A DNA stretch of 20,525 nucleotides from Thermoplasmata archaeon (GTDB lineage: Archaea; Thermoplasmatota; Thermoplasmata; GCA-020350865): contig CP070751.1 of assembly GCA_020348445.1 (NCBI GenBank), positions 1,104,309 to 1,124,833 on the forward strand. The letters run 5' to 3'. A program made the position numbers and the translations under genes. Each line of letters opens with the position of its first letter. Position 1 is the first letter of the stretch. Below, piece after piece: positions 829-20,363 of the stretch. Below the pieces are notes generated by a model. That model was not told the origin of the DNA, ran no database searches, and was given only the letters and a program-made list of their open reading frames with translations.

Positions 829-1007
829 CACTTCTCCCCCAGTGTATCTTTTTACAATTATGGCAATTCTATTATTTAATGGTTTTAGAACCCTTTTTTG
901 GGATGTGGAGTCCCATAATTACTGACCATCCTTGAAATCTACTGTTAATAGGGTGAGGCAGATGTAACCTTAACTTAACAAACACCTGCAAACATTTGTT
1001 AAGTTCA

Positions 1008-1046
1008 CATGCTATTTTCGTGCGATATCTCACGGATTTGGCATGC
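1008..1046 (+). repeat. Repeat family B (interrupted palindrome), junction-type copy
   Basis: 1009-1046 ATGCTATTTTCGTGCGATATCTCACGGATTTGGCATGC matches 19559-19596 at 37/38 nt. Confidence 0.9.
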
Positions 1047-1127
1047 GTCGTATACTTGGAATTTGTTGCTATCGGAGGCATTGCATCTGCACAATAATGC
1101 AATTTTCAATTACTAATTTTTATTTTA

Positions 1128-1157
1128 CGGGATTATAAAGGTGAAATCTTTTGTGAA
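1128..1157 (+). repeat. Repeat family A (bulged hairpin) copy
   Basis: CGGGATTA-TAAAGGT-GAA-ATCTTTT-G-TGAA, preceded by the AT-rich linker AATTACTAATTTTTATTTT; the same linker type precedes the copies at 17002 and 19950. Confidence 0.8.
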
Positions 1158-1210
1158 AATACAGAGCATATTATCTATTCTAAATTGGTCATCTCATTTA
1201 TGAATAGCGC

Positions 1211-1226
1211 CAGACAAATTTATATA
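1211..1226 (+). promoter_or_regulatory. Archaeal BRE/TATA promoter, probably for the 1399 gene
   Basis: cagacaaaTTTATATA; TTTATATA at 1219-1226. Confidence 0.6.
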
Positions 1227-1398
1227 TCATCCTTTATATTTCCTATCTAACAACTTAGGAGAGAGTATAGGTGGAAGAAGCGGGGGGAGTGGTGAAATTC
1301 CAAAAGTAAGATAAATTGTGAGGGTGAATCTTACTGCTTCTTTTATTGGCTCTTTTCAGGGGGAATATAATAATACATATATAGGGGGGATAAAAGAT

Positions 1399-3111
1399 AT
1401 GAAAAACATCAGTAGAATATGTGTCCTTGTTGTGTTGGGATTTTTCGTGAGTATGAACTTTATCCCGGCTGTTCATGTGGGAGCTGTTCCGCCTCCTTCT
1501 CCGAGCCTTTTCGAGATTCCAGGGCCTATGACCTATCAGGCCTCGGCGCACCCGTTCGGACCTGCAAATGAGGTCCATGTGGCTGTGAACCCATTGGACG
1601 ACGACCACCTCTTGGTGGTGGCAAAGGACTACAGCCTTGGCGATTGTGATTTCAGTACCCCCTCAGGAAGTGGATTTCATGTGGGAAGCGCATCATATGT
1701 GACAAAAGACGGTGGATTGACCTGGACTAGATCCCGCGTGCCAATGCCATATCCCTTTGTGGGCCCCATTGTAGGGCTCCCCTATGCATGCGGCTCCGAT
1801 CCCGTGGCCTTGTTCGGCCCAGATGGAACGGCATATTACGTCGTTTTGAATTTTGATTATCAGGGCCCAAATCTAGGAAGAAGGGCGGCCATTGCCGTGG
1901 CCCGATCACCGGATGGAGGAGAAACATGGCCAGGATCCGAGATACGGATTGTCGAAGACTCGCCTGTGGTGGACAAAGAGTGGGGAGCCGTGGATGATGA
2001 AGGCCGTTTGCACATCGTGTGGTCCGACCACACGACGAACACGATCTGGTACAGGCGTTCCAATACAGCCTTTGAGTTCACCGAACCGGCAATCAATATG
2101 GGATCAGGCCTTCCGGGGGCACAGGTGGACTGCGGAACTGATGACGAGGTGTATGTCTTTTGGCGATCCGGAAACAATATCAGGTTCAGAAGAAGCACCA
2201 ATGAAGGAGCCGATTTTGAACCCATGACTACGCCTTTCATCATCGATCGCTATCACGCCCCCTATGATACTCCACGGATCTGGTGCCTGCCATCCATAGT
2301 GGTGGACGATAAACCTGATTCTGATTACACGGGAAGGATATATCTCGCATGGCAGGATGAGGATGGTCTTGCGTACTCGAACATCTGGATGCGATACTCA
2401 GATAACGAAGGAGATACCTGGAGCGCAGCCGTTTTGGTGGACGAGAATGATGACCCTGCTCTTCGCTCGATATTTCCATCTATGTCCCTCAGTAGGAATG
2501 GGCGCGTGGACATCGCATGGATGCAGGAGGGACCCGATGCAAACGTTTTCAATGCTTATGCTGCTCGTTCTTTTGATGGTGGCTTTACATGGTCGCAGTA
2601 CGGCGCGGTCTCGGATAGACCAGTGATTGCTGAGTTCTCCTTTCATCAGAGCGGCAGCTACTTCATCGGCGACTACATTGGATCTGCATCTACCAACTGT
2701 AGAATCTGGGTCGCCCACCCCCAGACCCATGGCATCAACCCGCCGAGTAAAATCATCCGTACCGATGCCTACCTCACCAAGGTCTCCACCTGTTGGAAGA
2801 TCGATATCGCCGTAAATAAGTTAGGGATCTTGATCTCTGAAATAGAGGATCACATCAGAGGCCCGATTGGGCCTTGGCCGCCTTGTCCCCCCGTAGATTG
2901 CCCCTTAAATCCCGGCCAAGGAAATTCGCTGATCACGAAGCTAGAGGTGGCAACCAATAAGCTGAGCCAATTGAATGTCAAGGCAGCAAGCGGCGTCCTT
3001 AAAGCATTCTACAACGAGGTCAAGGCACTGATGAAGGCATCTGTTATTCCGCCTGACCTGGGACGATCCTGGGACGATTCGGCAACCGAAATCAGGAACC
3101 TGCTCGTTTGA
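1399..3111 (+). CDS. Secreted Asp-box/BNR-repeat (exo-alpha-sialidase-like) propeller protein with C-terminal FIMAH-like helical domain, 570 aa
   Basis: Start moved from 1318 to ATG 1399 (GGGGGGA upstream; signal peptide MKNISRICVLVVLGFFVSM). Asp-boxes TKDGGLTW, SPDGGETW, STNEGADF, SDNEGDTW, SFDGGFTW. C-terminus GQGNSLITKLEVA...LKAFYNEVKA resembles FIMAH domains. Confidence 0.88.
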   Translation: MKNISRICVLVVLGFFVSMNFIPAVHVGAVPPPSPSLFEIPGPMTYQASAHPFGPANEVHVAVNPLDDDHLLVVAKDYSLGDCDFSTPSGSGFHVGSASYVTKDGGLTWTRSRVPMPYPFVGPIVGLPYACGSDPVALFGPDGTAYYVVLNFDYQGPNLGRRAAIAVARSPDGGETWPGSEIRIVEDSPVVDKEWGAVDDEGRLHIVWSDHTTNTIWYRRSNTAFEFTEPAINMGSGLPGAQVDCGTDDEVYVFWRSGNNIRFRRSTNEGADFEPMTTPFIIDRYHAPYDTPRIWCLPSIVVDDKPDSDYTGRIYLAWQDEDGLAYSNIWMRYSDNEGDTWSAAVLVDENDDPALRSIFPSMSLSRNGRVDIAWMQEGPDANVFNAYAARSFDGGFTWSQYGAVSDRPVIAEFSFHQSGSYFIGDYIGSASTNCRIWVAHPQTHGINPPSKIIRTDAYLTKVSTCWKIDIAVNKLGILISEIEDHIRGPIGPWPPCPPVDCPLNPGQGNSLITKLEVATNKLSQLNVKAASGVLKAFYNEVKALMKASVIPPDLGRSWDDSATEIRNLLV

Positions 3112-3286
3112 CGCACAGATTCCGCGGGGGACCGAGGATGTTCTAATAGTTATATGTACTAAAGTCAGAACATCCCCTTTCTCCTCGTGTTATGTTCTTA
3201 TGAACTTGGGACTTAAGCACGAGGAGGCCAGTGAGTGGAGGTGCGGGGATTTTCCGGGGATTTTTGTGGTGGGTGGGGTTTTTAAG

Positions 3287-3316
3287 TGGGATTAGAGGGG
3301 TGAAACCCTTCGTGAA
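3287..3316 (+). repeat. Repeat family A copy
   Basis: TGGGATTA-GAGGGGT-GAA-ACCCTTC-G-TGAA. Confidence 0.9.
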
Positions 3317-3391
3317 ATGAATAGTAGTTGGATTTTTAGTTTTATTCTCTAGTGTTCACTGATTTCGTCATTTAGATTGCGAAATATGTAG

Positions 3392-3407
3392 GATAAATTA
3401 TATATAT
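3392..3407 (+). promoter_or_regulatory. Archaeal BRE/TATA promoter upstream of the leader of the 3569 gene
   Basis: gataaaTTATATATAT, about 160 nt upstream of ATG 3569. Confidence 0.6.
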
Positions 3408-3460
3408 CGCAAATACTATTGCGTTATTAAGAAATTTGGAGGAAAGTAAAGTGCACAAAA

Positions 3461-3568
3461 AGCGCCGAGGTGGGGCGCGATAACATCCTTGGAAGGAAAG
3501 GAGGGTAATTCTCTCTTCTTAAAAAATACCAATGGTCTCTTGATCTCAGAGAGTGGAGGTGATAATTA
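3461..3568 (+). promoter_or_regulatory. Conserved 5' leader element (family C), copy 1
   Basis: AGCGCCGAGGTGGGGCGCGATAACA (3461-3485), AAATACCAAT (3524-3533), SD GGAGGTGA. 23/25 identical to each of the other two copies. Confidence 0.85.
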
Positions 3569-4102
3569 ATGAGAAAAATGTTAGTTGTTGGAATATTTTT
3601 GGTACTTGCTGCAATGGTATTTGTAGGACCGGCAAACGCTGGTTCACAGGTCCCCTTCGAGGGTAAATTCGACGGCGGGAATGTCCCGGCTGTGGACCCC
3701 TTGGAGCGAGTTGTGGTGTCCGGACAAGCAAATCAGCTGGGGAAGTACACCGCGGTAATTGATGTCAATATGGCTATCTATGAAATCATTGGCTGGGTGG
3801 AAGTCGCGCCTGGCGTATTTTTCCCCATCCTTCGACTACCCACCACGGTGACATTCACTGCGGCGAACGGTGATGAGCTGTATGCAGACATGGACCTCAT
3901 CGGTATGCGCCATATGGTAGACGGGAACTTCCCATCCTTCACGCTGGATGGAACGATTACGGGCGGGACTGGTCGTTTCGCTGGTGCCACGGGATCCTTC
4001 TCGGGCTCTGGAGGCCAGATCACGATGCCCGGTGATGACACCGATCTGGTCAGCGGGACGTTCTTCGACGGGGCGATTTCGACAGTGGGCTCCAACAAGT
4101 AG
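3569..4102 (+). CDS. Secreted hypothetical protein, possible dirigent/allene-oxide-cyclase-like beta-barrel, 177 aa
   Basis: GGAGGTGA SD 6 nt before the ATG; signal peptide MRKMLVVGIFLVLAAMVFVGPANA; motif ITGGTGRFAGATG. Fold assignment is tentative. Confidence 0.8.
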   Translation: MRKMLVVGIFLVLAAMVFVGPANAGSQVPFEGKFDGGNVPAVDPLERVVVSGQANQLGKYTAVIDVNMAIYEIIGWVEVAPGVFFPILRLPTTVTFTAANGDELYADMDLIGMRHMVDGNFPSFTLDGTITGGTGRFAGATGSFSGSGGQITMPGDDTDLVSGTFFDGAISTVGSNK

Positions 4103-4180
4103 TAGCCCTGCTGTGCCAAGATCGGTGAGACACCGACCCTACTGTTGCGCAGTGGATAATGATAGTATCTAGGAAATTAG

Positions 4181-4217
4181 GGATAGACACCAGTCTATCC
4201 TATTCTTTTCTTTTTTT
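4181..4217 (+). terminator. Hairpin plus oligo-T terminator of the 3569 gene
   Basis: GGATAGAC-ACCA-GTCTATCC (perfect 8-bp stem) followed by TATTCTTTTCTTTTTTT. Confidence 0.6.
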
Positions 4218-4283
4218 GGTGTTTGTGTGGTATGGTGTACAATACTATGAATAAAAAAAATTGATGAAAAAATTGTATAATAG

Positions 4284-4373
4284 GTAGCAAAAATAGAGAA
4301 GGATGTCGTCATCGGCAACTATGTTATCATCGGTGTAGACATTTTCGTAAGAGATCGGATCATTGAACAATGA
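4284..4373 (+). pseudogene. Startless remnant of a hexapeptide-repeat (left-handed beta-helix) gene
   Basis: Between stop codons the frame reads VAKIEKDVVIGNYVIIGVDIFVRDRIIEQ*, with I/V at 6-residue periodicity. No start codon or SD. Confidence 0.45.
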
Positions 4374-4494
4374 GCGATTTTTGTGGACTGTCTGGGCCCT
4401 TTGTAAAATGAAAAGTGAGAAATGGAAAACCAAAAATTGACCGTCCGAAAACAATATAATTGAAAAGATATATAACGAGAAATGGAGGCATTTT

Positions 4495-5235
4495 ATGCAA
4501 GGGAATGATGATAGGAAAATGATATTGGCCATTATGATTACAGTAATGGGGATAGTCCTGCTCATGGTATCTTTTATTCTCCCATGGTGGGGACTTCATC
4601 TGGAAATGGATGGATCAGCATCAGGAGGCGGTTTTGGCGTTTCCATTTCAAGTGGGATTTCATATCAGGGAAGCGGGACAGGTTTCTATATCGGTAGCAG
4701 CACCTCAATTGTATATTCTGTTGCAGCCGTGCTGATTATCCTTGCGCTCATTTGCGCCTCATTGATGGTAACTGCCTTAATAATAAGCTTGATCAATAAT
4801 AATATGAAACCCAAATTCCCGCTGCAGTTGGGTGTTTTGGCAATGGTATTTTGTCTTCTGGCCCCTATAATATTCATGATTGCATTACCTATGTCAATGA
4901 AAGCCGATGCAGAAAAAGAAGCTGAAGATAGTGGCAATGAATATGTCGAACCAGATCGTGATGATCCCACTAAATCTTTCTTTGGAAGCTATGAAGAGGA
5001 GGGAGTTTTTCACACTGGTACAACTAAAAGTAATTGGGGCGGTGATATAGGCTGGGTTCTTTCATTCATTTCATTTTTATTTTTAGCTATTTCCGTTAAT
5101 TTGATAAGACCGAGAAAAGCAGCACCTCCTATTGCACAGGTAGCCCCACCAGAGGGAATCTATGTACCTGAACCTCAGCCACCACATCAAATACGATACA
5201 GTCAACCACCCCCTCCTCCACCACCCTCAAAATAA
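4495..5235 (+). CDS. Four-TM membrane protein with proline-rich C-terminal tail, 246 aa
   Basis: GGAGG SD at 4484-4488; four hydrophobic segments, the first ending LPWW; tail ends QPPPPPPPSK. Confidence 0.85.
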   Translation: MQGNDDRKMILAIMITVMGIVLLMVSFILPWWGLHLEMDGSASGGGFGVSISSGISYQGSGTGFYIGSSTSIVYSVAAVLIILALICASLMVTALIISLINNNMKPKFPLQLGVLAMVFCLLAPIIFMIALPMSMKADAEKEAEDSGNEYVEPDRDDPTKSFFGSYEEEGVFHTGTTKSNWGGDIGWVLSFISFLFLAISVNLIRPRKAAPPIAQVAPPEGIYVPEPQPPHQIRYSQPPPPPPPSK

Positions 5236-5262
5236 TGTGATTTTTGATAGCTTAATTTGTAA

Positions 5263-5292
5263 CGGAATTAAAAGGGCGAAAGCCTTCGTGAA
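5263..5292 (+). repeat. Repeat family A copy between convergent genes
   Basis: CGGAATTA-AAAGGGC-GAA-AGCCTTC-G-TGAA. Confidence 0.85.
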
Positions 5293-5345
5293 TCTAATAA
5301 ATGAAATAAAAAAAAGAAGAAGATTTGTGATTTGCTTTTCACTCA

Positions 5346-6299
5346 CTATGGGTTTATAACACGTATGGTGTCGCTCCCTTCAAATATTGTACCATCAAAA
5401 AGTTCTCCCGAGACTGTTATGGTTGCATCTCCTGGAACGCATGCATCCTGAACATTGGGTCTGTCAAATTTGACCATAAGATAAGTCTCACCCACACCAA
5501 CGGGATGAACTTCCGCAGATATACTCACAGGATTGCCGTTTATGTCCGTGATGGCAACTGTGGAAACATCTATATCCTCCACCTCGGCGTCCAGGTAAAG
5601 ATGAGTTATCGTGACAGGTTGTGCCATGTCCAGCGAAATCTCGGATCCATCGCTGTCCACATAGACCCAGCTTGTCATGGGGTGTGAACCAGCAAAAGTG
5701 GGATCAATTGAAAATGACCACCCTGTATCTGTTGGAATGTCCCCGATAACACCACCGTCCGTGTTGTAACCATAACCCCATGTACCCTCCACAGGACGTG
5801 TAACATCGAATTCTGCAAGATTGTCATCTGATTGTGCTGTGGTCACACCGGCCGGCAATCCATCGAAATCGAAGCGAACAGTGGCAGATGGTGAGCCTAC
5901 ATGTGGTGGGGTATTGGAATCTATGTTGTGGTGTACGAAGAAGCTCAGCTCCCCGGTCAATGTGTTTGTGTAAAGGTACAGCTTGCTAACATAGGGCTCC
6001 ACAAACTCGGTGTGGGCACTGGCACTCCAGTAGTCATAGTATACTGCATCGTTTTCTGCCCTCTCCACAGGTGATACGGTATGTGTGACTCCCCCTTGTG
6101 TTACTGTATACGCGTCTATGAAAGGCAGCTCGATCTCGCATGTGACCCATTTTCCATTGCTCTTCAGATTAAGAGTTTCGGGATGGATATTTACTCTGCC
6201 CGGGGCAATATAGGTAGGTGCGCATGCGTTCTGCGGAACAGAAGCCAGAACTAGAAGGGCGAATACCACGGCAGCAAGAATTGCTATTTTTTTTCTCAT
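5346..6299 (-). CDS. Secreted protein with a split 'TLNLKS-G-W' domain enclosing a ~177-aa passenger, 317 aa
   Basis: GGAGGTGA SD; signal peptide MRKKIAILAAVVFALLVLA. aa36-59 VNIHPETLNLKSNGKWVTCEIELP and aa237-317 ...LMVKFDR...GELFDGTIFEGSDTIRVINP align to the contiguous C-terminal domain of 8247..9794. Confidence 0.88.
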   Translation of the reverse strand: MRKKIAILAAVVFALLVLASVPQNACAPTYIAPGRVNIHPETLNLKSNGKWVTCEIELPFIDAYTVTQGGVTHTVSPVERAENDAVYYDYWSASAHTEFVEPYVSKLYLYTNTLTGELSFFVHHNIDSNTPPHVGSPSATVRFDFDGLPAGVTTAQSDDNLAEFDVTRPVEGTWGYGYNTDGGVIGDIPTDTGWSFSIDPTFAGSHPMTSWVYVDSDGSEISLDMAQPVTITHLYLDAEVEDIDVSTVAITDINGNPVSISAEVHPVGVGETYLMVKFDRPNVQDACVPGDATITVSGELFDGTIFEGSDTIRVINP

Positions 6300-6400
6300 T
6301 TCCTATCACCTCCCCCTATCATAATAGGCCTATTGGTATTTAGAGAAAAGAAGATACACACCCTCTCCTCCCTCCTGTCATTGCGCCCCACCTCGGCGCT
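6300..6400 (-). promoter_or_regulatory. Conserved 5' leader element (family C), copy 2
   Basis: Minus strand AGCGCCGAGGTGGGGCGCAATGACAGGAGGGAGGA (6400-6366), 33/35 identical to copy 3; AAATACCAAT at 6341-6332. Confidence 0.85.
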
Positions 6401-6687
6401 CCTTCGCAGCGCCTTGCCACAAAATAAAATTGTAATCGCCTCGTTCTTATTTTGTAGGCTCGTGCGCTCCTCCCTCTGATCTATCCCTCTGAGGGGATAG
6501 TAAATCAACTTGCTGACATAAATAATTATTGTTTAATTTAGTAAAAAATTGATTTCTCGCCAGATTGGTTGGTTTTTGGGGGGTGGGACCTTCGGGAAAT
6601 GTTGTATAAAGAGATCTCAATTGCTAAATTCTTATCGGGGTTAGCATGGTGACTTTTGGTCTCCATTATAAGTGGGAAATATCATTT

Positions 6688-6716
6688 CCCCTGTAGAAGG
6701 GTAAGGTCCTTTAAGA
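6688..6716 (+). repeat. Repeat family A, degenerate copy
   Basis: CCCCTGTA-GAAGGGT-AAG-GTCCTTT-AAGA; bulged G missing; head resembles the 10379 copy. A degenerate head CGGGGTTAG lies at 6636. Confidence 0.6.
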
Positions 6717-6801
6717 AAATATAAAAGAAATCAACATAATCACCTTTCTCACAACTTTTAAATATTATCCCAATAATTACAAATCTGCGGGGTTAAAGAT
6801 A

Positions 6802-7299
6802 ATGAAGAAAACCCAAAAGATCACAATCGCGATCTTGATACTGATTATCATTGCTGTATCTGGCTGTACGGCGCCAGTGATCAAAAAGAATATCTATTAT
6901 CGGGCTTGCTATAGAACTGTATTCGATTTGGCCAAGATCGAAAGTATTCTCACAAATAATAATATCACAATTCAGTGCGAGAACGAGAATATCTTTTTCA
7001 ATTGGGAAGAAGGCATAAATGATTATTCGGTAGAAGCTACTGAAGGAGTAATATATAAGTACGGTGGCTCACGCGACGATGAATCCGGGGAGTATTCAGA
7101 ATTGATATTATCCTTGGATGCTGTTGCTTACCCCGGGGTTGACAAAGATGATAATTATAAAGAAAAACTGGACCAAAGGAAATCCATGCTTGAGGATTCT
7201 ATGGAATACTTGACATCACTGATAAATAATTCAACCGGTGACTGGCCAGAATCCAAGGAGTTTGAATACGGTGATGTAAAGGAAGGAGGTTTTTGGTAA
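6802..7299 (+). CDS. Putative lipoprotein, 165 aa
   Basis: MKKTQK + hydrophobic stretch + lipobox-like AVSGC; TTTTAAAT TATA candidate at 6756-6763. Confidence 0.82.
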   Translation: MKKTQKITIAILILIIIAVSGCTAPVIKKNIYYRACYRTVFDLAKIESILTNNNITIQCENENIFFNWEEGINDYSVEATEGVIYKYGGSRDDESGEYSELILSLDAVAYPGVDKDDNYKEKLDQRKSMLEDSMEYLTSLINNSTGDWPESKEFEYGDVKEGGFW

Positions 7300-7320
7300 T
7301 TATATTGTAAATCTGCTTTA

Positions 7321-7354
7321 TCCATCGCACGGATTTGGCATACCATTTTGATGG
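7321..7354 (+). repeat. Repeat family B copy with a 5-nt deletion in the right arm, between convergent genes
   Basis: TCCATCGCACG-GATT-TGGCATACCA-TTTT-GATGG. Confidence 0.85.
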
Positions 7355-7378
7355 TATAATACTTGCATCAAATGAAGG

Positions 7379-7861
7379 CTAAAGCGAAATCTGCGCCGCA
7401 AACTCCTCTACCTTCTCCTGCCAGCCTTCTTTCAGTGGCCCCTTCATAGTCTCTGCCAAGACATAGAACTTCTTGTCAGCAACCTTCACCAGTCCCTTTC
7501 CCTTCAGGACCTCGTCCATGATGGGTATGGTCTTCCTCCATCGGTATATTTCCTCTTCAGTTGGCATCTTCCCGGTCTTTTTATCAGGCACCGCCTCCCC
7601 ATGGGTGGCAAATACGGCATATTTCGTTCCCGGTGACAGGACCACCTTCTTGATGAAACGGCGCATGCTCCCAATGGGCTTGCCGAACCGCGTGGGGGAG
7701 CCGAAGATATACAGATCAGCAGATGGCAGCTTTTTTGGATTCTCCCCCTTGATATGATGCACGTTCACATTGTGGCCTTTGGCCTCCATGACCCGACGCA
7801 GTTCTTCGGCTACCTTTGCTCCGTTCCCGAACTTCGATGCATGATACAACTCCACCCTCAT
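7379..7861 (-). CDS. Flavodoxin-family protein, 160 aa
   Basis: Start moved from 7984 to ATG 7861 (GAGGTGA SD 7 nt upstream). FMN phosphate-loop-like LYHASKFGNGAKVAE; IFGSPTRFG. Confidence 0.88.
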   Translation of the reverse strand: MRVELYHASKFGNGAKVAEELRRVMEAKGHNVNVHHIKGENPKKLPSADLYIFGSPTRFGKPIGSMRRFIKKVVLSPGTKYAVFATHGEAVPDKKTGKMPTEEEIYRWRKTIPIMDEVLKGKGLVKVADKKFYVLAETMKGPLKEGWQEKVEEFAAQISL

Positions 7862-7924
7862 TCTCTCTTCACCTCTTCCCTCTGAGGGGTAATGGTGGAC
7901 AGATTTATGTGTTAAAAAATATTT

Positions 7925-7954
7925 CGGGCTTAGAAGGGTAGAGCCCCTTGTGAA
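7925..7954 (+). repeat. Repeat family A copy between divergent genes
   Basis: CGGGCTTA-GAAGGGT-AGA-GCCCCTT-G-TGAA. Confidence 0.85.
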
Positions 7955-8246
7955 TAAGAATGTGAAAAATGAATAGTGTAGCATGACGAAGTTAAACTCA
8001 ATTTAAAATGAATCTTTCATTAATATTCTGAATATGACCAATCTCGTTTATATTATTGCGGAAGACATAAATATCCAGAACTCGATTCAGGCTCGGATGG
8101 AGGGAGGCTGAAGGGAATGGTGGAATTAGAAGAGGCGAGGGCTCGAATCTCGAAAATCTTGACCATTTCCAGATAGCCCTATCGCCTTTTTTTCGAATAT
8201 TCCCTTTGGCGTATACCTCAAGAAAAATATAAAGGAGGTAAGAGAT

Positions 8247-9794: not shown

Positions 9795-9814
9795 TCTTTA
9801 ATCTGCTCTGCACT

Positions 9815-9879: not shown

Positions 9880-10005
9880 GAATCGAATAGGCTAGTAAGT
9901 AGTAGTCAGGATGCTGGCTGGGCGGGATTCCAATCTTTGGCAGGTGGGGTGTTTAAGTGCCCCAAAATAAAGGTTTTGGGCGGGTCCTGCGGGCGGAAAA
10001 AATTT

Positions 10006-10035
10006 TGGGGTTAGAGGGGTAGGACCCTTCGTAAA
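10006..10035 (+). repeat. Repeat family A copy
   Basis: TGGGGTTA-GAGGGGT-AGG-ACCCTTC-G-TAAA. Confidence 0.9.
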
Positions 10036-10041
10036 TAAGGA

Positions 10042-10257
10042 TCATTGTTTGAGAGCTTTGATTTCATTTTCCAATGTATGAATTTGATCAACCAGTTTCT
10101 TAACATGTTCGTGAACATCTTTTTCTATTTCTTGTTTGAGCTTCTTATTTTGGATCTCCAAATTATTGATCCAATCAAAGACATCTTCCATTTTTTCCTC
10201 AAGGTGTTTTATCCTCTTGGCCAATGGCTGATCCATGAGATACGCAGGTATTGCCAT
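10042..10257 (-). CDS. Small coiled-coil hypothetical protein, 71 aa
   Basis: GGGGTGA SD 5 nt before ATG 10257 (the track's GTG at 10266 lies inside the SD); TTTTAAAT at 10297-10290; heptad-like L/I pattern. Confidence 0.7.
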   Translation of the reverse strand: MAIPAYLMDQPLAKRIKHLEEKMEDVFDWINNLEIQNKKLKQEIEKDVHEHVKKLVDQIHTLENEIKALKQ

Positions 10258-10310
10258 AGCTATCACCCCAATAAAGTAATACCAATCTACATTTAAAACA
10301 TTTTTCTAAA

Positions 10311-10408
10311 CGGGGTTAGAGGGGTGGAGTCCCTCGTTAGAACGTTTATAATCAATTATTATTTTTAAATTTTATTTTCCCCTATAAAAGGGCGGAGCTC
10401 TTTGTAAA
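10311..10408 (+). repeat. Two tandem family A copies (10311-10340, 10379-10408)
   Basis: CGGGGTTA-GAGGGGT-GGA-GTCCCTC-G-TTAG and CCCCTATA-AAAGGGC-GGA-GCTCTTT-G-TAAA, starts 68 nt apart with an AT-rich linker. Confidence 0.88.
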
Positions 10409-10485
10409 ATGAAAATAAAGGTATATTTGAAAGATAAAAAAAAGAAAGAAGAAGGTTTGATGAAGTAATCTGTTTATTTCCCATG

Positions 10486-11556
10486 TTAAATCAAAGTGAC
10501 AGGTTCGCTGTAACCTTCAAATGGCGTGCCATCCGAAAGAAGTCCTGCGATTTTGAATTCCGCAGGTTTTACTGGGGGAGGACCACGCATTATGTGATCC
10601 TCCAACTCGCTGCGGTCGAATTTGAGCATCAGTTTCGTACCAGTAACTTTGCTCCAGTCAACAGGAATTGCATCTTCCATCATAATCCTGTCCGCAACGA
10701 AATCTTCGGCAGAATAGCCCTTGGGCGGTTCGATTTTGGCCATGACCCACCTACCATTGCTCTTCAGGTTCAATGTAAGCGGGGTGAAATGCCAGGGCGG
10801 GAGCGTTAGTATCGGTAATGTGGTTCCTTCGATCACAAAGGCGAAATCCAAAGGATGGCCCGCATAATCATGGTCTGAAGGATATTCCAAAGGTACCCAG
10901 CCAGTCGCAGTTTGCCTGACGGCATTGTCATTCCACTGCTGACTCGGGTCAGTGGACTTCCAACCGAACACCCCGGGCGTGGTGAGATAATGCTGAACTC
11001 CGAGCCAGTAGATGGTGTTTACATGCTGATAGTAAGCATCGGGTACGCTGATTTCGAAATTGTATTGGAAGACCATGTGATGGTCGTTTGGTGCGTAGAA
11101 TGGTGCTTCCGGATCGTACCAGCCCTCCGAGGTATTGGTAGCCACGTTTAATACTGTATATGAACCTGGTGAGAATGACATGTCCCACAGTTTTGTTCCA
11201 GGCATGCTGTAGTTGTAACCAGGCGTCCCCGGGGTATGGGGTGGAATGTCGCTCCAGATTGAAAGGATGAACATCAAGCCTGTGGGACCTGACGCGGGCA
11301 TTATATCCTTTTCAAACGAACCCCAGATGTGTATGCCGGTTATGTATCCGGTTTCCGTGCACTTAAAATCATCTGCCCTGATGGCCATAAGCGGCATCTT
11401 CACAGCCACACCGTTTGTGGATATATCAGGTGTTTGCGGCCAGTGCATCTTGTGGCCGTCCGTCGGTACCCAGTCCGCAAGGGATGATGCGGCAAATGTC
11501 ATGCTTGTTGCTGTGAACATTATACAAATCAGAGCTACCACTAATTTCTTCCTTAT
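10486..11556 (-). CDS. Secreted protein with C-terminal 'TLNLKS-G-W' domain; start probably ATA 11556 (track uses GTG 11541)
   Basis: GGAGGTGA-TACA-ATA AGG AAG AAA TTA GTG gives (M)RKKLVVALICIM. Passenger includes HKMHWPQTPD...ADDFKC; C-terminus FTPLTLNLKSNGRW...LMLKFDR...GLLSDGTPFEGYS. CDS is confident; exact start is uncertain. Confidence 0.85.
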   Translation of the reverse strand: MRKKLVVALICIMFTATSMTFAASSLADWVPTDGHKMHWPQTPDISTNGVAVKMPLMAIRADDFKCTETGYITGIHIWGSFEKDIMPASGPTGLMFILSIWSDIPPHTPGTPGYNYSMPGTKLWDMSFSPGSYTVLNVATNTSEGWYDPEAPFYAPNDHHMVFQYNFEISVPDAYYQHVNTIYWLGVQHYLTTPGVFGWKSTDPSQQWNDNAVRQTATGWVPLEYPSDHDYAGHPLDFAFVIEGTTLPILTLPPWHFTPLTLNLKSNGRWVMAKIEPPKGYSAEDFVADRIMMEDAIPVDWSKVTGTKLMLKFDRSELEDHIMRGPPPVKPAEFKIAGLLSDGTPFEGYSEPVTLI

Positions 11557-11652
11557 TGTATCACCTCCTCCCTCTCATGGGGCATATTGGTATTTTCCGG
11601 GAAAGTAGATTCATATTTCCTCCCTCCTGTCATCGCGCCCCACCTTGGCGCT
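11557..11652 (-). promoter_or_regulatory. Conserved 5' leader element (family C), copy 3
   Basis: Minus strand AGCGCCAAGGTGGGGCGCGATGACAGGAGGGAGGA (11652-11618); AAATACCAAT at 11595-11586. Confidence 0.85.
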
Positions 11653-11999
11653 CTACCCTCTTTACTTTATTTTCCTTTAAGGGGTAGAGACTTGATACAC
11701 TTATACGATTATAAAATTATGGATTAATTAAATCACAGTTTTAGGAAAATGTTGACCACCAATTGTCCATTAACTTATGTGCATTCAAAAAAGGATCAGG
11801 AAAACTCCATTTATCCTTACCCCCCCATCCCCTCCCTCTACTTCTCCCCCCTTGCCCCCATCTCTCAACCTAATCACCGAACCCCTCCCAACCGCGTTCG
11901 ATGGTAGAAAACTACGCGTGTCGGGGGCACGAAATTAGACTTAAGGGAACCGGATGAGGCAGTTATGGAGTGTGGGATCCTTGATAGATGATTTTAGGT

Positions 12000-12024
12000 T
12001 CCATCGCACGGATTTGGCATGCCA
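12000..12024 (+). repeat. Repeat family B, left arm plus core
   Basis: TCCATCGCACG-GATT-TGGCATGCCA; a further degenerate half-site ATCTCACGCATTTGGTA at 12121-12137. Confidence 0.85.
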
Positions 12025-12454
12025 CAGTGCACTTCGATCTGATGAATAAACATGCGAAGTGCACGTGTATTTAAATTATCTTAATTATATGATTTCCAAC
12101 TCGATAATTTAACCAAATCTATCTCACGCATTTGGTAGTTGATTTTGGAGTGATCCCTCGAATTTGGTATACAATCTACCACTCATATTTGGAAAAGGAT
12201 TTTTGGCCCACCTCAGGTAATTACACGGTTCTAACAAATCTCGAGTTTGATAACCAAGTTGATCTCATTCATCATTATAATGCAACAGTGGATACTTCCT
12301 TTGATATGTTCAATTAGGATGGTTTTCAACCAGAAAACAGTTATGGGCACCCAACAATGAGCACGTTGGCTGGATCGTTTTAGCCTTATCTATATAAATC
12401 TTGTCCTAATAAAAGTCGAATTTGATTTTCAGATTTGGGGACTGGCCCATCACC

Positions 12455-12464
12455 TTTTTATATA
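12455..12464 (+). promoter_or_regulatory. TATA box for the GH9 gene
   Basis: TTTTTATATA about 100 nt upstream of ATG 12561. Confidence 0.6.
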
Positions 12465-12560
12465 CTAATTATTCATAGTTTAATATTTAATTATAGTTGG
12501 TTTGACCCCTCGGGGTCAAGTTGGAGATGAAATAGTATACATCATCGTTGAGGTTTGGCT

Positions 12561-15500: not shown

Positions 15501-16802
15501 GATGATGGCAATTTCGGCTCGGGCGAGAAGCCAAACCATATCTATGCCGACCCAGGTGTCTACACCGTCACTTTAACTGTAACGGATGATGATGGTGACA
15601 CGGGTCAAGACATTTGTACGATAACTGTAGATCCGAGACCTCCAAATCCATCTATAAACCTCGTTTACGGGTGGAACCTCATATCCTTCCCTTATATTGT
15701 AAGTGATACCAGTCTAGAAACTGTACTGAGCTCAATTGATGGAAAATACGATTCAGTTCAATACTTCGATTCCTCGGATTCTGCAGATCCTTGGAAACAT
15801 TATAACGTGAAAAAACCAGGACATCTAAATGATCTTACTCAAATTGATAATACAATGGGATTCTGGATCCATATCACCGATCCATCTGGTGCCGATTTGG
15901 TAATTGATGGAGATATACCTTCCATTCCACATAATATAACTCTAAATGCCGGCTGGAACCTTGTTGGTCTGCCCAGGACCGATTATATCACTGTTTCCGA
16001 AGTAAGATCTGTTTTGACAGGACCAATAACAATTTACGAATTCAATCCTCTTGGAGAGCCCCAGAACTGGAAAGGCCTCGATTTTGATGATGTGATGAAC
16101 CCTGAAAAAGGATTTTATATTCATTCTCCAGTCACCCAAACCTGGACCGTGGCAAATGGTGGGGCAACTGAATATGATGTGGATGTCAATACATTGGCAC
16201 TCTGGCATTTGAATGATAATCTGGATGATGTGACAGGACACGGTTATACCTTTGGTCTGCAGGGCAGCGCCCAGATCTCGGACGAGAACGTCATGTGGAT
16301 GGACAGTCCCTCGGGAAAATCCCTCAAATTCTCAGGTTATACAGATAAGGCAATGGTCTCAATTCCGCGCTCAGCATTGTGGAACTCCGCTGACGATGTC
16401 CTTGACTTCGAGGCAAGGATGTACATAGAGGCCTACGATGCCTGGAGCTATGAGAATGTTTATGTCATGGGATTGTACCAGAGGTACGACCATAACTACC
16501 TTTTCTACGATGGCAAATGGGAGGATCCACATATCAGGATCGAGAATCCCACAGCTAAAACATATATCATGGAGTCCACACAGGTCGCAAGTGATATTCC
16601 CCTTGGTGAGTGGTTCCAGATAAACCTTGTTCTGGGATGGGGACAGGCCTTCGTATATGTAAACGAACAGCTGGTGGCCAACCTAAGTATGCAGCCAGAG
16701 TTCGAGGGATTAAGTGATCCAATCGAGATATGGTTCGGTGGATTCGTAGGTTATGTAGATGAGATCAGGCTCAGCGATATCGATCGTAATGTGGATCCAT
16801 AA
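12561..16802 (+). CDS. Multidomain glycoside hydrolase family 9 (cellulase-like) protein: signal/anchor, N-terminal beta domains, Ig-like + GH9 catalytic, Pro linker, PKD, two GWNL repeats, LamG/ConA-like; 1413 aa
   Basis: GAGGT SD 6 nt before ATG 12561. VNQVAY (like the CelD_N NQVGY motif); GGFHDAGDFD at ~14034; candidate catalytic Glu in TSEG at 15216; SPPPPPP; PVADAG...YSWNFDDG...YTVTLTVTDDDG (PKD); GWNLISFP/GWNLVGLP; LALWHLND...GYVDEIRLS. Confidence 0.88.
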   Translation: MKRESKKKSKLCPRSITCIAVICLLFLSTLSISIISQEKNPLGASKGESEPMGADPPINQSDIVTGVSSSRIVLDWDDVPGASGYNVYYAPEPRYLDDDNNRKADAAGITESIHTITNLSPATNVFIRVEVLGTEAEDLYDHAKTLGGPRAELESAVREVHMAAPDIIEIVFADYRTVYDGSQLTGNDGAAWQSATWTITRLDGNPINVQAAHRKSIPVSQPDWGYNTDTWGDKDNDVVDLDHHIFLKLYQNVLTNPDTDTAEILNIKTTDGPTGTLEFNMVFSDNYLEGPIDVNQVAYSPMATERYAYVHEWMGDGGPVPVTSYQNYPACVLYEPANITDERGVVLSGISVVKRSPERLDAYGKDEASGTDVGSIDISSLGAQDNLTYRVKIPGVGVSWPTQVSNLGFLKAFYVTLRGFDANGWYRSIEEAYWGPYTRPIDEYSDCGTRSHGWAYIPPPDLENYDWNSDFDFNVMIDGNGDPKGTKIPVRGGFHDAGDFDIRPSHTMIPIILLAVYELNSNAFTDGQLDIEESGNGIPDLLDLALWGSRAFEDIQRSNGGVSMGVQTDGHPQQYFYANNDIYKSHHPGYPGLKPHWTYAPSAAISAIAAGFFAKGAYLVEPFDAARASELETKAIDAYTYAKNNGASTHTKIYGAGELWRLTGDSQYKDDFESFWDAGAWNYESSSYDKYRSTSNYVNGDVALPQFVDAYVSMPGARSDIVNAFKADLITISDERIADTDNRHGHRNNRPVTHVGYGQGYGLGRWSEATISLLKFDDLSISDRQKYINMLSLNADFLLGTNPLSHVPMSGLGTINPMEPLWHDGLAFHKQFDLPIIPGYSVFGPFDDFTADSYYAEAGAGFYPDHNDFPLMNNFADVRTWVRTSEGTSHYTQTSHALFYCALLAEGLQVPDSWKPGGSNFLNGIPGTGGGSPPPPPPANKLPVADAGDDQNVLEDQPVYFDGSGSYDLDGFIVDYSWNFDDGNFGSGEKPNHIYADPGVYTVTLTVTDDDGDTGQDICTITVDPRPPNPSINLVYGWNLISFPYIVSDTSLETVLSSIDGKYDSVQYFDSSDSADPWKHYNVKKPGHLNDLTQIDNTMGFWIHITDPSGADLVIDGDIPSIPHNITLNAGWNLVGLPRTDYITVSEVRSVLTGPITIYEFNPLGEPQNWKGLDFDDVMNPEKGFYIHSPVTQTWTVANGGATEYDVDVNTLALWHLNDNLDDVTGHGYTFGLQGSAQISDENVMWMDSPSGKSLKFSGYTDKAMVSIPRSALWNSADDVLDFEARMYIEAYDAWSYENVYVMGLYQRYDHNYLFYDGKWEDPHIRIENPTAKTYIMESTQVASDIPLGEWFQINLVLGWGQAFVYVNEQLVANLSMQPEFEGLSDPIEIWFGGFVGYVDEIRLSDIDRNVDP

Positions 16803-16932
16803 AGAGAGGAAAAAAAGTGGTTGTTGAGGAGGGGGAGTCTTGAGGTAGGACGTGTAAATCAGTATGAATCCGTATTTGACTGGAGTCATACCCGAAGTGC
16901 GGTTCAAACAAATTTCTGGTCAATAATTTCAG

Positions 16933-17032
16933 CGGATTTAGAAGTGGAAGTCCCTTCGGTAGGACGAATAAAAAGAGATTTTGATTATTAATTTTTATTT
17001 TCGGGATTAGAAGGATGGTGATCTTTTGTGAA
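16933..17032 (+). repeat. Two tandem family A copies (16933-16962, 17002-17032)
   Basis: CGGATTTA-GAAGTGG-AAG-TCCCTTC-G-GTAG and CGGGATTA-GAAGGAT-GGTG-ATCTTTT-G-TGAA, starts 69 nt apart. Confidence 0.85.
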
Positions 17033-17197
17033 TATGAATTGTCGGAATATAGGTAGAAATCTCTTATTTTTTCATGTATATTCATAATTATATGAGAATA
17101 ATAAATATAATGATTGGCTGAATAACCATTTATATATGTTAATTTATTACCGAAATTATACATAAACAGGTTACTAAATAAAAAAGCGGGGAATGAC

Positions 17198-17587
17198 ATG
17201 GATATCTGTTTGACAATTACTACGATAATAATACTTGGTCCATTTATCGCGGGTGTGGTTGCTGCTATAATAGCATCGAAGGGCAAAGGGAAGACGGCGA
17301 TTGATAAGTTTATAGAGAGCACGAGAATCTTACAATCATTTCTCATCATACCAATGAAATCCTATAAATCTAAAAGGAAAAAAATTAGGCAATCCATATT
17401 CTGCATACTCGTTGCTTTCGGTGTTATATATTTCACGGGATTTTGGGCCTACTATCAGGATATTGCCGCCCTAAAGATCATTTTCTCAGCTATCGCAATT
17501 TTATACATAATTATTTTAGTTCGAAACGTGATAGTTCTTGGGGCATTACTTGGATCAAAGAAAAAAACTAAAGCCAAATCCTATTAA
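17198..17587 (+). CDS. Small three-TM membrane protein, 129 aa
   Basis: TTTATATA at 17129-17136, GGGGA SD-like; three hydrophobic segments; basic C-terminus. Confidence 0.75.
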   Translation: MDICLTITTIIILGPFIAGVVAAIIASKGKGKTAIDKFIESTRILQSFLIIPMKSYKSKRKKIRQSIFCILVAFGVIYFTGFWAYYQDIAALKIIFSAIAILYIIILVRNVIVLGALLGSKKKTKAKSY

Positions 17588-17739
17588 TTACGAATTTGAT
17601 TCTTATGTTATGATGCTAGCCATTTTTGATCTCAAATCGTGATTCGTGAAGGGATGAAATGTGATTGAATCTCCAATATTCGGGTTGTAAAAGTGGTTAT
17701 GGAGATCATCTACTGTGGGAGTTCTGAAAGTAATTTATG

Positions 17740-17769
17740 CGGGATTAGAAGGGTAAAATCGTTCGGTAA
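17740..17769 (+). repeat. Repeat family A copy
   Basis: CGGGATTA-GAAGGGT-AAA-ATCGTTC-G-GTAA; 3' flank (aagacatataaaaagagatttt) resembles that of the 16933 copy. Degenerate head at 17681. Confidence 0.8.
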
Positions 17770-18011
17770 GACATATAAAAAGAGATTTTGAATAAATCAA
17801 TATAATATAATAAAAGGTTAAGAGATATAAATAATTATAACAAAATAACATAATTGAATAGAAAAAATTTTATATTTAGGAGTTGATTTACCTTCGGCTT
17901 TGGAAGGGAATTACCTGGAAGGTTATTCTCGGAAGGGCCTGAGTTGGGAGGTGTAATAGAACCTTCTCTTTGAATCATTCCCTTGTTCTCAGAGGGGGGA
18001 GGTGATAAAGA

Positions 18012-18737
18012 ATGAGAAAATTCATAACAACAGGAATGATATTGATATTTGTTATATCGATGTGTGCCATAACTATATCTTCCGCAGCAGTTGCCGCACC
18101 TTCAGGAAAAGGCGTTTCGACGCGCCCGATCGAGGATTTTGTTAACGCACAGGGTAAACACGGATGGTACCTTATGTGGGGAACTAATGCATGGGACCGT
18201 GAGGCGTACGTTGATTATGCTGGGATAGACAACGAAGCGATCATAGTCGCGGGCGGTGATGATCTCGGAACAACATTTTCCGGTACCATTACTGAGAAAG
18301 TTCTTAAAGATGGAAACACTCTAGTGCATGTCACTCTCTTCACAAAGAATGCACTGACCTATTCGTATGATGCTCCTATCGATGACTTTGTCTATGGAAG
18401 TACTCCGGGCGAGGTAATTAGTGGCGCGCATGCGTCCCTTGGCAGCAGCAGGTTCAGTCTCACATACATAACAGATGAAGCCCCAGGTGCACCGATGCCG
18501 GATTTGGTTGATATGGTTGTTTTTGGAATACCAGGCACGTATCCCACAAAAGTCAATTTCGTGGCAAATTCAAGGGGAGAGCTCAATGAGGAATATGGAG
18601 TTCCCCAGGGGACACCGGGTAGTTTAACGGTGGTAATGGAGGCAAATTTCAATGCACCAGGTCTCTGGAAGTGCGGTCACTTTTTGCCATCGTTTTGGCC
18701 AGTAAGCATTGTCAATGTGCAACAGATCGGTAATTAA
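18012..18737 (+). CDS. Secreted hypothetical protein, 241 aa
   Basis: GGAGGTGA SD 6 nt before the ATG; signal peptide MRKFITTGMILIFVISMCAITISSAAVA; TTTTATAT near 17869. Confidence 0.85.
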   Translation: MRKFITTGMILIFVISMCAITISSAAVAAPSGKGVSTRPIEDFVNAQGKHGWYLMWGTNAWDREAYVDYAGIDNEAIIVAGGDDLGTTFSGTITEKVLKDGNTLVHVTLFTKNALTYSYDAPIDDFVYGSTPGEVISGAHASLGSSRFSLTYITDEAPGAPMPDLVDMVVFGIPGTYPTKVNFVANSRGELNEEYGVPQGTPGSLTVVMEANFNAPGLWKCGHFLPSFWPVSIVNVQQIGN

Positions 18738-18761
18738 AAATTCTAAATATAAGGAAAAACG

Positions 18762-18802
18762 GCCCGGCATTCTATCCCTTGTCGGGTCCTCAAATTTTTT
18801 TT
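18762..18802 (+). terminator. Hairpin plus oligo-T terminator between convergent genes
   Basis: GCCCGGCA (18762-18769) pairs with TGTCGGGT (18780-18787, two G-T pairs), followed by a T8 run. Confidence 0.5.
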
Positions 18803-18836
18803 ATTGTATCAAACAGGGAACCAGGGAATCGCCTAA

Positions 18837-19190
18837 TCAACTTGCTGATTCTATCTCAATTAATATCTTATTTTTTCCTACTTTTGATATAATTACGATC
18901 TCATCTCCTCTTATGTCAAGATTTTTTTCCAAATCGGATGGAATCCGTAAAACGGTTCCTCTACCGCTTTTCGATAATTTCCTGTACAATTTTAGAGGTT
19001 TTCCCCAAATTTTCATTCTTCTGGCAACCTTAATCATCTTCTGGCCTTCCTCTTCCGGGATGAACTCCTCTCCGCATGATGTGCATCTGTTTCCTTTTTC
19101 AATGAAGAAATATCCTTCTACCTCAGACACGATATCCTCGACGTGTACTAATTTGCCCTTTTCACAAACAGGACACTTTTTTTCTTTCAT
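18837..19190 (-). CDS. Putative antitoxin: YgiT/MqsA-type zinc ribbon fused to an AbrB/MazE-like DNA-binding domain, 117 aa
   Basis: CPVC...CTSC at the N-terminus; LSKSGRGTVLRIPSDLEKNLDIRGDEIVI at the C-terminus. ATG 19190 lies 8 nt after GGAGGTGA and 1 nt after the upstream stop. Confidence 0.82.
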   Translation of the reverse strand: MKEKKCPVCEKGKLVHVEDIVSEVEGYFFIEKGNRCTSCGEEFIPEEEGQKMIKVARRMKIWGKPLKLYRKLSKSGRGTVLRIPSDLEKNLDIRGDEIVIISKVGKNKILIEIESAS

Positions 19191-19191
19191 G

Positions 19192-19440
19192 TTATCCTTC
19201 ACCTCCGGTTATTATAAAGATTGTTTCAAACTCCCAGTAATAAACTGCGACAACTTTCTTTTCTCCTTTCTTTTTGATATAGAATTCATATTTCTTTTTT
19301 CCAATCTTTTTTGTTTTATATGCGTTTTTAATGGCATCTCTTAGATCTTCATAATCCCAATCCCATTTTTTCATCCAAGTGTTTCGAAAGTGGTTGTTCA
19401 CTTCAAGTTTGCAAGTATCTATATCATATTTTCGCACCAC
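19192..19440 (-). CDS. Putative toxin (DUF4258/RelE-like small basic protein), 82 aa
   Basis: Small Lys-rich protein translationally coupled to the zinc-ribbon/AbrB gene; its own TATA (TTTAAATA, 19480-19473). Family call is by context and resemblance only. Confidence 0.7.
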   Translation of the reverse strand: MVRKYDIDTCKLEVNNHFRNTWMKKWDWDYEDLRDAIKNAYKTKKIGKKKYEFYIKKKGEKKVVAVYYWEFETIFIITGGEG

Positions 19441-19443
19441 TTT

Positions 19444-19464
19444 TTCACTACATTATGTATTGAA
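19444..19464. promoter_or_regulatory. Palindromic operator candidate for TA autoregulation
   Basis: TTCA-C-TACAT-T-ATGTA-T-TGAA lies between the TATA box and the toxin start codon. Confidence 0.5.
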
Positions 19465-19551
19465 TTTCATTATATTTAAAGGCTTCGATACAACTGCTGA
19501 ATGTTGATATAACTAAGATTTCGGATATGGTTACGAGGAGTCAATGCTCAT

Positions 19552-19613
19552 ATTTGGTATGCCATTTTCGTGCGATATCTCACGGATTTGGCATGCCATT
19601 TTCGTGAGATGGA
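19552..19613 (+). repeat. Repeat family B, head-to-tail tandem (partial + complete unit)
   Basis: ATTTGGTATGCCATTTTCGTGCGAT followed directly by ATCTCACG-GATT-TGGCATGCCA-TTTT-CGTGAGAT-GGA. Confidence 0.92.
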
Positions 19614-19823
19614 GGTTCATTGAACAAAGGGTCATTTTGGTGCACTGGTTCAGCCCTGAATAATCCCGCAAAAATTAGTGTTTTAGCCCGAGCAGATGGG
19701 GTGGGTGCGTTGGGAATCTGGGGATTTTTGCCGGATTCGGGTGATGCATTTGATTTTTTGCTCTGGGAGGCAAGGGTGAGCCTTTGGGAGGATATGTGAA
19801 AAGTTCTGGTTAGTAATTTTGAG

Positions 19824-20043
19824 CGGGGTTAGAGGGGTGAAGCCCCTCGTAAGAACGTCTATAGTAATTCGTAATTTTTGTGGAGTTAAAGAGGTGGAAC
19901 CTCTTGTAAGAACGTATGGTAGAAATTCTTAATTATTAATATTTATTTTCGGGATTAAAAGCCGGAGGCTTTGTGAAATAATATGTGAAATAATCCTTAT
20001 TACTTGTTTCTACGGGTTGAAAAGGGAGGGGGCCCTTTGTTTA
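19824..20043 (+). repeat. Array of four family A hairpins (starts 19824, 19881, 19950, 20013)
   Basis: Stems GAGGGGT/GCCCCTC, AAGAGGT/ACCTCTT, AAAGCC/GGCTTT, AAAGGG/CCCTTT; start-to-start spacings 57, 69 and 63 nt. Confidence 0.9.
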
Positions 20044-20074
20044 ATGTTAAGTAGAAATGATTGTTCTTGTTAAA

Positions 20075-20362: not shown

Positions 20363-20363
20363 T

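Follow-up and report, generated by a model that had tools for sequence, protein, structure and literature searches.

Integrons are, to our knowledge, the only well-understood platform for stockpiling and re-ordering single-gene cassettes, relying on a single enzyme family and a single type of site. Archaeal integrons with both IntI and attC have been reported. Among other mobile systems, the IS1 and IS1595 transposases bind terminal repeats that overlap their own promoter through the InsA Zn ribbon and helix-turn-helix (HTH), and the Rpn proteins (YhgA-like, Transposase_31) are multi-copy, bacterial, ‘transposase-like’ PD-(D/E)XK proteins that are not classical transposases and are thought to promote recombination; we know of no repeat arrays or rows of cassettes described in association with Rpn. 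Here we analyze a 20,525-nt stretch of DNA from a Thermoplasmata archaeon (contig CP070751.1, positions 1,104,309 to 1,124,833; hereafter the window), in which genes of unrelated function are separated by two families of short folded repeats, A and B. With about even confidence, we read the window as a nuclease-less stretch of a cassette array belonging to a modular system of DNA rearrangement that is confined to a single genus. More tentatively, this system may be a new archaeal cassette platform, in which a candidate nuclease encoded on other contigs, P0001, would read B, act on single-stranded A hairpins, and excise, capture and re-order self-expressing cassettes, also between species. Searches of the literature turned up no account of a system or protein of this kind.

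The A and B repeats are strand-specific folded elements that lie only between genes of accessory islands. The family A unit, ~33 nt long, consists of a T-rich run, a GGGATTA-like box, a 7-bp stem with a 3-4 nt loop, and a GTGAAA- or GTAAGAACG-type tail, and its copies are 60-90% alike. A covariance model built from 38 copies (CM R1) gives 14 matches in the window at E<0.02, all 14 on the + strand and all 14 intergenic. The chance of finding every copy on one strand is ~1e-4, and that of their placement in nine gaps, in a window that is ~26% intergenic, is ~5e-6. Single units lie at 1115..1165 (50.4 bits; T-run, GGGATTA box, 7-bp stem and GTGAAA tail; a row of alignment A1), 3274..3324 (after a G-rich stretch and a repeated element at 3108-3265), 5250..5300 (3′ of the stop of the minus-strand gene 5346-6299), 7912..7962 (near a flavodoxin-like gene), 9993..10043 (touching the stop of a small coiled-coil open reading frame (ORF), 10042-10266) and 17727..17777. 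Pairs occupy 10298..10416 (units at 10298 and 10366: type 1, an AT-rich linker, type 2) and 16920..17040 (units at 16920 and 16989, behind the GH9/PKD gene), and four tandem units (19811, 19868, 19937 and 20000), also recovered by repeat finding, span 19811..20051. Two weaker copies, both on the + strand, complete the set: a degenerate A-like hairpin without the GGGATTA box at 6675..6725, in the gap 6300-6801 (CM R1, E 0.68; read by eye), and a truncated module at 4340..4416 that joins a B 3′ arm, an A′-like stretch and an A 3′ half (4394-4416; repeat families D9 and D11). Together with the nine clear gaps, these reproduce the ten gaps with a full hairpin and the one gap with a half copy of the original prediction, which had also described the repeats, correctly, as co-oriented in divergent, convergent and tandem gaps alike.

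Covariation supports the fold. Across the 38 copies, pairing in the A stem reaches 91%, and 35 cells at five of the seven pairs carry changes on both sides; this count of double changes was reached by none of 500 shuffles, and registers slid along the alignment are only 34-65% paired. The stems also hold ~30 G·T wobbles, which would be A·C mismatches on the opposite strand, so it is the + strand that folds, as single-stranded DNA or RNA.

Family B is a 34-nt interrupted palindrome with an 8-bp outer stem, a 4x4 internal loop and a central 10-nt palindrome, often present as abutting units. The B profile finds four sites in the window, all on the + strand: single units at 1008..1057 and 7305..7354, a unit with two degenerate units at 11984..12183, and an array of two to three abutting units at 19524..19615. 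As had been noted before, two gaps (7300-7378 and 11542-12554) hold B only. Over 33 complete units B is 88% paired with 49 double changes, which include the central palindrome variants GGCATGCC, GGTATACC, CGTATACG and CGGATCCG, and T·G wobbles occur in the outer stem. Partial modules are many, and the sole complete module of the window, at 19524-20051, runs from the B array through A′, an inverted copy of the A box on the - strand (19633..19681; CM R1 E 1.7; inverted repeat I24), and a G-rich spacer to the A array. In the predicted fold, A′ and the first A unit form a stem, leaving the G-rich spacer enclosed in a foldback (-46.7 kcal/mol, z -3.5 versus shuffles). This B-to-A interval, carrying A′ and the spacer, is conserved in modules. 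The majority of A copies occur by themselves, with neither A′ nor B. The G-rich spacers before A contain G-quadruplex-type motifs on the + strand (3271-3300 and 19698-19723), two against ~0.3 expected per strand and too few to build on. The structured repeat that precedes the G-rich stretch and A unit at 3274 (3108-3265) is 78-87% identical to stretches in two related genomes, G001 and G004, with 3108-3252 being 87% identical to a G001 stretch.

To place these repeats in the genome, the nature of the source record has to be considered. The window makes up a whole contig of G000, a metagenome-assembled genome (MAG), with 100-N spacers on either side. Near-identical proteins from the same genus bear the labels ‘Thermoplasmata archaeon’ and ‘Methanomassiliicoccales archaeon’, in keeping with an uncultured member of the Thermoplasmata. 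The G000 record (5.16 Mb, a ‘single contig’) is made up of 353 contigs joined via 100-N runs, in order of falling length over the first ~2.0 Mb and unsorted in the second block that follows; for positions on different contigs, strand comparisons and distances between islands carry no meaning. At 5.16 Mb against 2.3-3.7 Mb in its congeners, G000 may be a composite bin. Iterated nhmmer profiles and two covariance models, run over the 5.16 Mb, count ~22-35 A and 38-46 B copies on ~10 of the 353 contigs, in accessory islands. This clustering makes A and B unlike REPs, which would be found genome-wide, and differs from the even spread through core operons that the original prediction had set against its own reading. 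Within every contig A and B are co-oriented, in the recurring order of a B array, ~300 nt and an A array. They occur together in four of the five genomes of the genus and are missing from all 116 further genomes drawn from the class. One 115-kb contig carries a 24-kb array that starts abruptly after ordinary genes and encodes an AAA ATPase, a C-type lectin, NosD/beta-helix and fn3 surface proteins, a HEPN-nucleotidyltransferase pair and a KAP NTPase. An rve-type transposase gene 6 kb before the head of this array was rejected as a candidate, as no other array has one. AAA_14-DUF4143 ATPases turn up repeatedly in the vicinity of B arrays, on several contigs and in no fixed position (G000 989368-990567, 995578-996864, 3027882-3029063 and 4620633-4621877).

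Comparison with the congeners (G001, G002 and G004) places A copies at the borders of blocks that have evidently been gained, lost, duplicated and re-ordered between related genomes. A 9.6-kb contig of G001 carries orthologues of four window cassettes, all on the - strand in the window: the small coiled-coil ORF and the DUF7901 gene (10042..11541), which are kept together; the flavodoxin-like cassette (7379..7864; 85% nucleotide identity), which sits elsewhere in the array; and the terminal pair of genes resembling a toxin-antitoxin (TA) system (20075..20525; 88% nucleotide identity on this mosaic contig). The same 9.6-kb contig also holds two genes of the G000 contig 1508769-1515569 and one gene from 2.29 Mb. 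The orthologues share 74-90% protein identity, their order is changed, and their orientation relative to A and B is kept in 8/8 cases. Two neighboring G001 genes have exchanged places with no inversion, and a Ras/Roc-type small GTPase gene (L012 2791-3351) is among the swapped cassettes.

Gain and loss can be followed at G000 1324400-1323800, where the A array, with a PIN-type pair on one side and a B array on the other, contains extra A-flanked small cassettes; G001 has only A1-linker-A2 there. One of these extra cassettes recurs on another G001 contig with ~90% nucleotide identity, A on both sides and unrelated outer flanks. Thus, a gene gain or loss between congeners has its borders at A copies, the kind of breakpoint that had been predicted. 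Two module copies within G001 are identical to just 3′ of the hairpin and then split, one continuing into the linker and a second A and the other into a cassette, and other pairs of A copies share only the left flank or only the right, with the switch at the edge of A. In G001, a single hybrid unit takes the place of the window A pair at 10298-10416, and between genomes the number of tandem A units differs by exactly one. In G002, the TA-like cassette at 18837..19440 (- strand) is preceded by a B-A module in place of the gene 18012-18737. Between G000 and G001, cassette DNA is 84-89% identical and neighboring or core genes, two control regions included, are 68-80% identical; the higher identity of the cassettes suggests that they moved between lineages after the lineages had split. 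The repeats had originally been taken together as cassette borders. That description fits A; B is no simple border, being linked to the promoter of a nuclease gene that is present in multiple copies.

The product of this gene, P0001 (322 aa), emerged from clustering of all ORFs on contigs with A or B. In 8/8 full-length close copies in the genus, a B array lies 35-180 nt upstream of the P0001 start codon, divergent from the gene, and the same proximity is found in ~11/13 copies on independent metagenome contigs. The last B unit abuts a TATA-like box located 25-35 nt before the start codon; from this overlap with the TFB-recognition element (BRE) and TATA box, it is plausible that B serves as an autoregulatory operator of P0001. 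We rejected B as a general promoter element of leftward genes, since no more than roughly half of the B sites are accompanied by one, the nuclease gene excepted. The B units of the window belong to the subtype seen beside the P0001 copy at G000 4953549-4954505. The copy at G000 1321215-1322204 has an in-frame TAG, reflecting either a pseudogene or a sequencing error.

The P0001 N-terminus (residues 21-113) matches the Zn ribbon and HTH of IS1 transposases at scores under the curated cut-offs (NF033558, E 8.5e-5, 22.6 bits, cut-off 100; NF050000, 17.9 bits, cut-off 28; PF03811, E 0.014), and the four Cys of the Zn ribbon are conserved. There is no DDE catalytic domain; the C-terminal half is instead a PD-(D/E)XK nuclease of the Cas4/RecB type. 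Pfam PDDEXK_1 scores near its cut-off, and the D, E, D-x-K and QxxxY motifs are represented by the invariant residues D236, E243, D264, D277-Y-K279 and Q289 and the nearly invariant Y293. The AF2 model of P0001 (pLDDT 90.5) finds Cas4 SSO0001, AddAB, Cas4 Pcal_0546 and Exo5 as its best Foldseek matches (prob 0.97-0.99, E ~1e-3). C308 is the only conserved Cys of this half, and the Fe-S cluster cysteines of Cas4 proper are absent. Relatives of P0001, mostly on short contigs, are labelled ‘transposase-like protein’ or ‘PD-(D/E)XK nuclease family protein’. Its paralogues share 72-80% DNA identity, and the homology ends at the stop codon.

In the mechanism we propose, P0001 would bind B arrays via its N-terminal domain and would cut or process the single-stranded top strand at or beside A hairpins. 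The breaks would then be resolved between co-oriented A sites, such that segments would keep their orientation, and A-to-A segments, each holding one gene or gene pair in either orientation with its own promoter, could be excised, re-inserted, duplicated or lost. The original prediction of an undescribed shuffling platform is borne out as far as the shuffling and the A-bounded gain and loss are concerned, and it gains a candidate enzyme from outside the window; the reaction itself, and capture by a dedicated enzyme, are what we infer.

Several observations weigh against this proposal. The P-Q junction of the swapped genes in G001 (L022 8426-8461) carries no A or B, nor does the window gap 18738-18836, which had already been singled out as holding neither. 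Since A is conserved in any case, it offers no means of locating the crossover point within it, and breakpoints at the ORF ends of the flavodoxin-like and TA-like cassettes were dropped as uninformative because non-coding flanks are expected to be unalignable at 85% coding identity. The first 125 residues of P0001 are 84% identical between copies that share a B subtype and 69% identical in other pairs, with the nuclease domain at 81% versus 79%; this speaks in favor of the proposal, but the link between N-terminus and B subtype stands on 3-4 pairs and is confounded by relatedness. The 72-80% identity of the paralogues marks them as old, maintained copies and not as a recently active, jumping element, and no P0001 gene lies on the window contig. 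All the genomes compared are fragmented MAGs, N-joined sets of contigs, with G000 oversized among them. No recombination product, whether a circle or a junction read, was seen, and most of the patterns could also arise, with no dedicated enzyme involved, from unequal crossing-over of co-oriented repeats combined with duplication and loss.

This last point leads to the rival that survives best, although we consider it unlikely: that A/B modules are non-autonomous foldback elements, akin to MITEs or PATEs and derived from the nuclease unit, which insert one way in intergenic island DNA, with shuffling as a by-product of homologous recombination or unequal crossing-over. The A′-spacer-A arrangement does resemble a MITE with inverted ends, and nuclease-less modules far outnumber modules with a nuclease gene. 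Changes in the number of tandem A units and A-bounded deletions are what unequal crossing-over gives, and duplication followed by loss can mimic re-ordering that keeps orientation. However, most A copies lack both A′ and B, and units of 33 nt that are 60-90% alike make a poor substrate for homologous recombination. We found no case of the same pair of neighboring genes with and without a module between them, and the compensatory changes across copies point to continuing selection on the fold.

It is more improbable still that A and B are regulatory or architectural elements (operators, promoter sites, insulators or small RNAs) of a variable surface and defence island whose rearrangement reflects general plasticity unrelated to the repeats. 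Some placements would suit such a role: B overlaps the BRE/TATA of the nuclease gene, the T-run of A gives on the opposite strand a BRE/TATA for two minus-strand genes, and A sits ~60-110 nt upstream of the TATA-like boxes of six + strand genes. Yet the orientation of A is constant whatever the direction of the flanking genes. The hairpin is found upstream of promoters for + genes yet 3′ of stop codons for - genes; its place in transcripts is therefore inconsistent, which sits badly with an RNA role. An Rfam search of the window returned no family at gathering thresholds and none up to E 0.5, and under this explanation the A-bounded gain and loss and the mosaic borders would be coincidence.

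Two further explanations are very improbable. An assembly or binning artefact would be favored by genomes that are N-joined contig sets, by the oversized G000 and by the tendency of repeats to break assemblies, but copies as short and as divergent (60-90%) as those of A and B would not collapse assembly graphs, four MAGs and 20 independent metagenome contigs show this architecture, and rearranged blocks sit inside single contigs. A divergent member of a known system, whether an integron or CALIN, a pdif-module array or a REP/IS200-type element, is largely refuted: co-oriented folded sites between unrelated genes and TA-like pairs do resemble sedentary integrons, but the site has no R′′/R′ pair, the genes face both ways with their own promoters, and the repeats are clustered. 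Across the whole MAG, the tyrosine recombinase profile PF00589 gives two partial matches (47 and 22 bits), neither on a contig with A or B and none in the window, and the five PF01797 (Y1 HUH) matches lie on other contigs, have unrelated hairpins and give no hit to the A and B profiles in their flanks. The original prediction of sites other than attC is upheld by direct reading of A, and these whole-MAG searches link no IntI, Xer or HUH enzyme to A or B. Its companion statement, that the window contains no recombinase, is correct for tyrosine recombinases and carries little weight, since the window is one isolated contig of only 20.5 kb and says little about the real locus.

The genes of the window are, as had been claimed, functionally unrelated: two BNR-like genes, FG-GAP, DUF7901, GH9+PKD, flavodoxin-like and several secreted unknowns. 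Eight lie on the + strand and nine on the - strand, and most carry a Shine-Dalgarno (SD) sequence and a TATA-like box, in agreement with the prediction that they mostly have their own promoter and SD. The two TA pairs of that prediction are present as two-gene cassettes, and their TA identity comes from sub-threshold matches: the cassette at 18837..19440 has a weak MqsA-like Zn finger (E 4e-4) and that at 20075..20525 a weak HTH and PIN-like pair, whose G001 orthologue is HTH/UPF0175-like and PIN_4-like (E 0.004). The flavodoxin-like gene lies in a long ORF (7379-7984) in which the flavodoxin match begins at residue 47 and the homology to G001 and the SD end near 7864; judged from these, it probably starts near 7864, which leaves the A copy at 7912..7962 intergenic. 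The T-run of that copy, read on the minus strand, is likely the BRE/TATA of the gene. A search of genome contigs for relatives of the DUF7901 protein returned only a distant planctomycete match, uninformative for synteny and taxonomy, and no tRNA or tmRNA gene was detected in the window.

Some smaller features recur with these genes. On three contigs, very small coiled-coil ORFs (38-74 aa) that resemble one another in their C-terminal heptads lie between two A copies (window 10042-10266, - strand; L012 3539-3655, + strand; L014 8094-8270, + strand) and may represent a recurrent mini-cassette or an accessory factor. The FG-GAP gene has a conserved 5′ leader (window 8098-8238) in common with a paralogue on another contig (L012 4930-5100). 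A third repeat, a gene-oriented GC hairpin, is found in the 5′ leader of three secreted-protein genes (3461-3485; 6376-6400 and 11628-11652, both on the - strand), and this conserved leader hairpin recurs in relatives.

Should the proposed platform be confirmed, it would mean that cassette platforms evolved more than once, with single-stranded hairpins and a PD-(D/E)XK nuclease as a second, unrelated archaeal solution. It would account for the variation in surface and defence genes among these sediment archaea, and a small protein with two short DNA sites would be open to direct bench testing.

How the locus compares with known mobile elements depends on which of its parts is considered. The gene P0001 recalls IS1 and IS1595 in its front end, although the matches there fall under the curated cut-offs, in the B units that overlap its own promoter, in its multiple copies and in the ‘transposase-like’ labels of its relatives. 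Unlike those elements, its catalytic part is Cas4/RecB-like with no DDE, no terminal inverted repeats bound the gene, and its copies are only 72-80% identical. P0001 resembles Rpn as a multi-copy, ‘transposase-like’ PD-(D/E)XK protein, but the two probably belong to different sequence families. The A hairpins are reminiscent of IS200/IS605, PATE and REP/RAYT elements, being short and strand-specific, carrying a conserved box at their 5′ foot, keeping to one orientation in each region and being expected to act on single-stranded DNA. They differ from these in that no Y1 HUH gene is linked to them, the MAG’s own IS200 hairpins are unrelated, and A and B are clustered in few islands. With respect to the terminal inverted repeats of MITEs, complete modules have the inverted A′/A pair around the G-rich spacer, but most A copies have no A′.

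The layout resembles that of sedentary chromosomal integrons and CALINs, which share co-oriented sites that fold as single strands between unrelated genes and TA-like pairs, with content and order that vary between relatives. The B array beside the divergent nuclease gene likewise recalls the intI-attI arrangement of integrons. The parts themselves are different. The array is without a tyrosine recombinase, and the enzyme candidate is a multi-copy PD-(D/E)XK protein encoded inside arrays, within which B arrays recur. Integron attC sites are 55-141 nt long, with the order R′′-L′′...L′-R′, GTTRRRY/RYYYAAC boxes and extrahelical bases, whereas A, read directly, is ~33 nt with one 7-bp stem. Integron cassettes are mostly promoterless and share one orientation, whereas the window genes lie on both strands with their own promoter and SD. 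The pdif modules have 28-bp XerC/XerD sites in alternating orientation, whereas B is 34 nt, always co-oriented and has no linked tyrosine recombinase. If our proposal is right, these archaea would thus perform an integron-like function with none of the parts of an integron.

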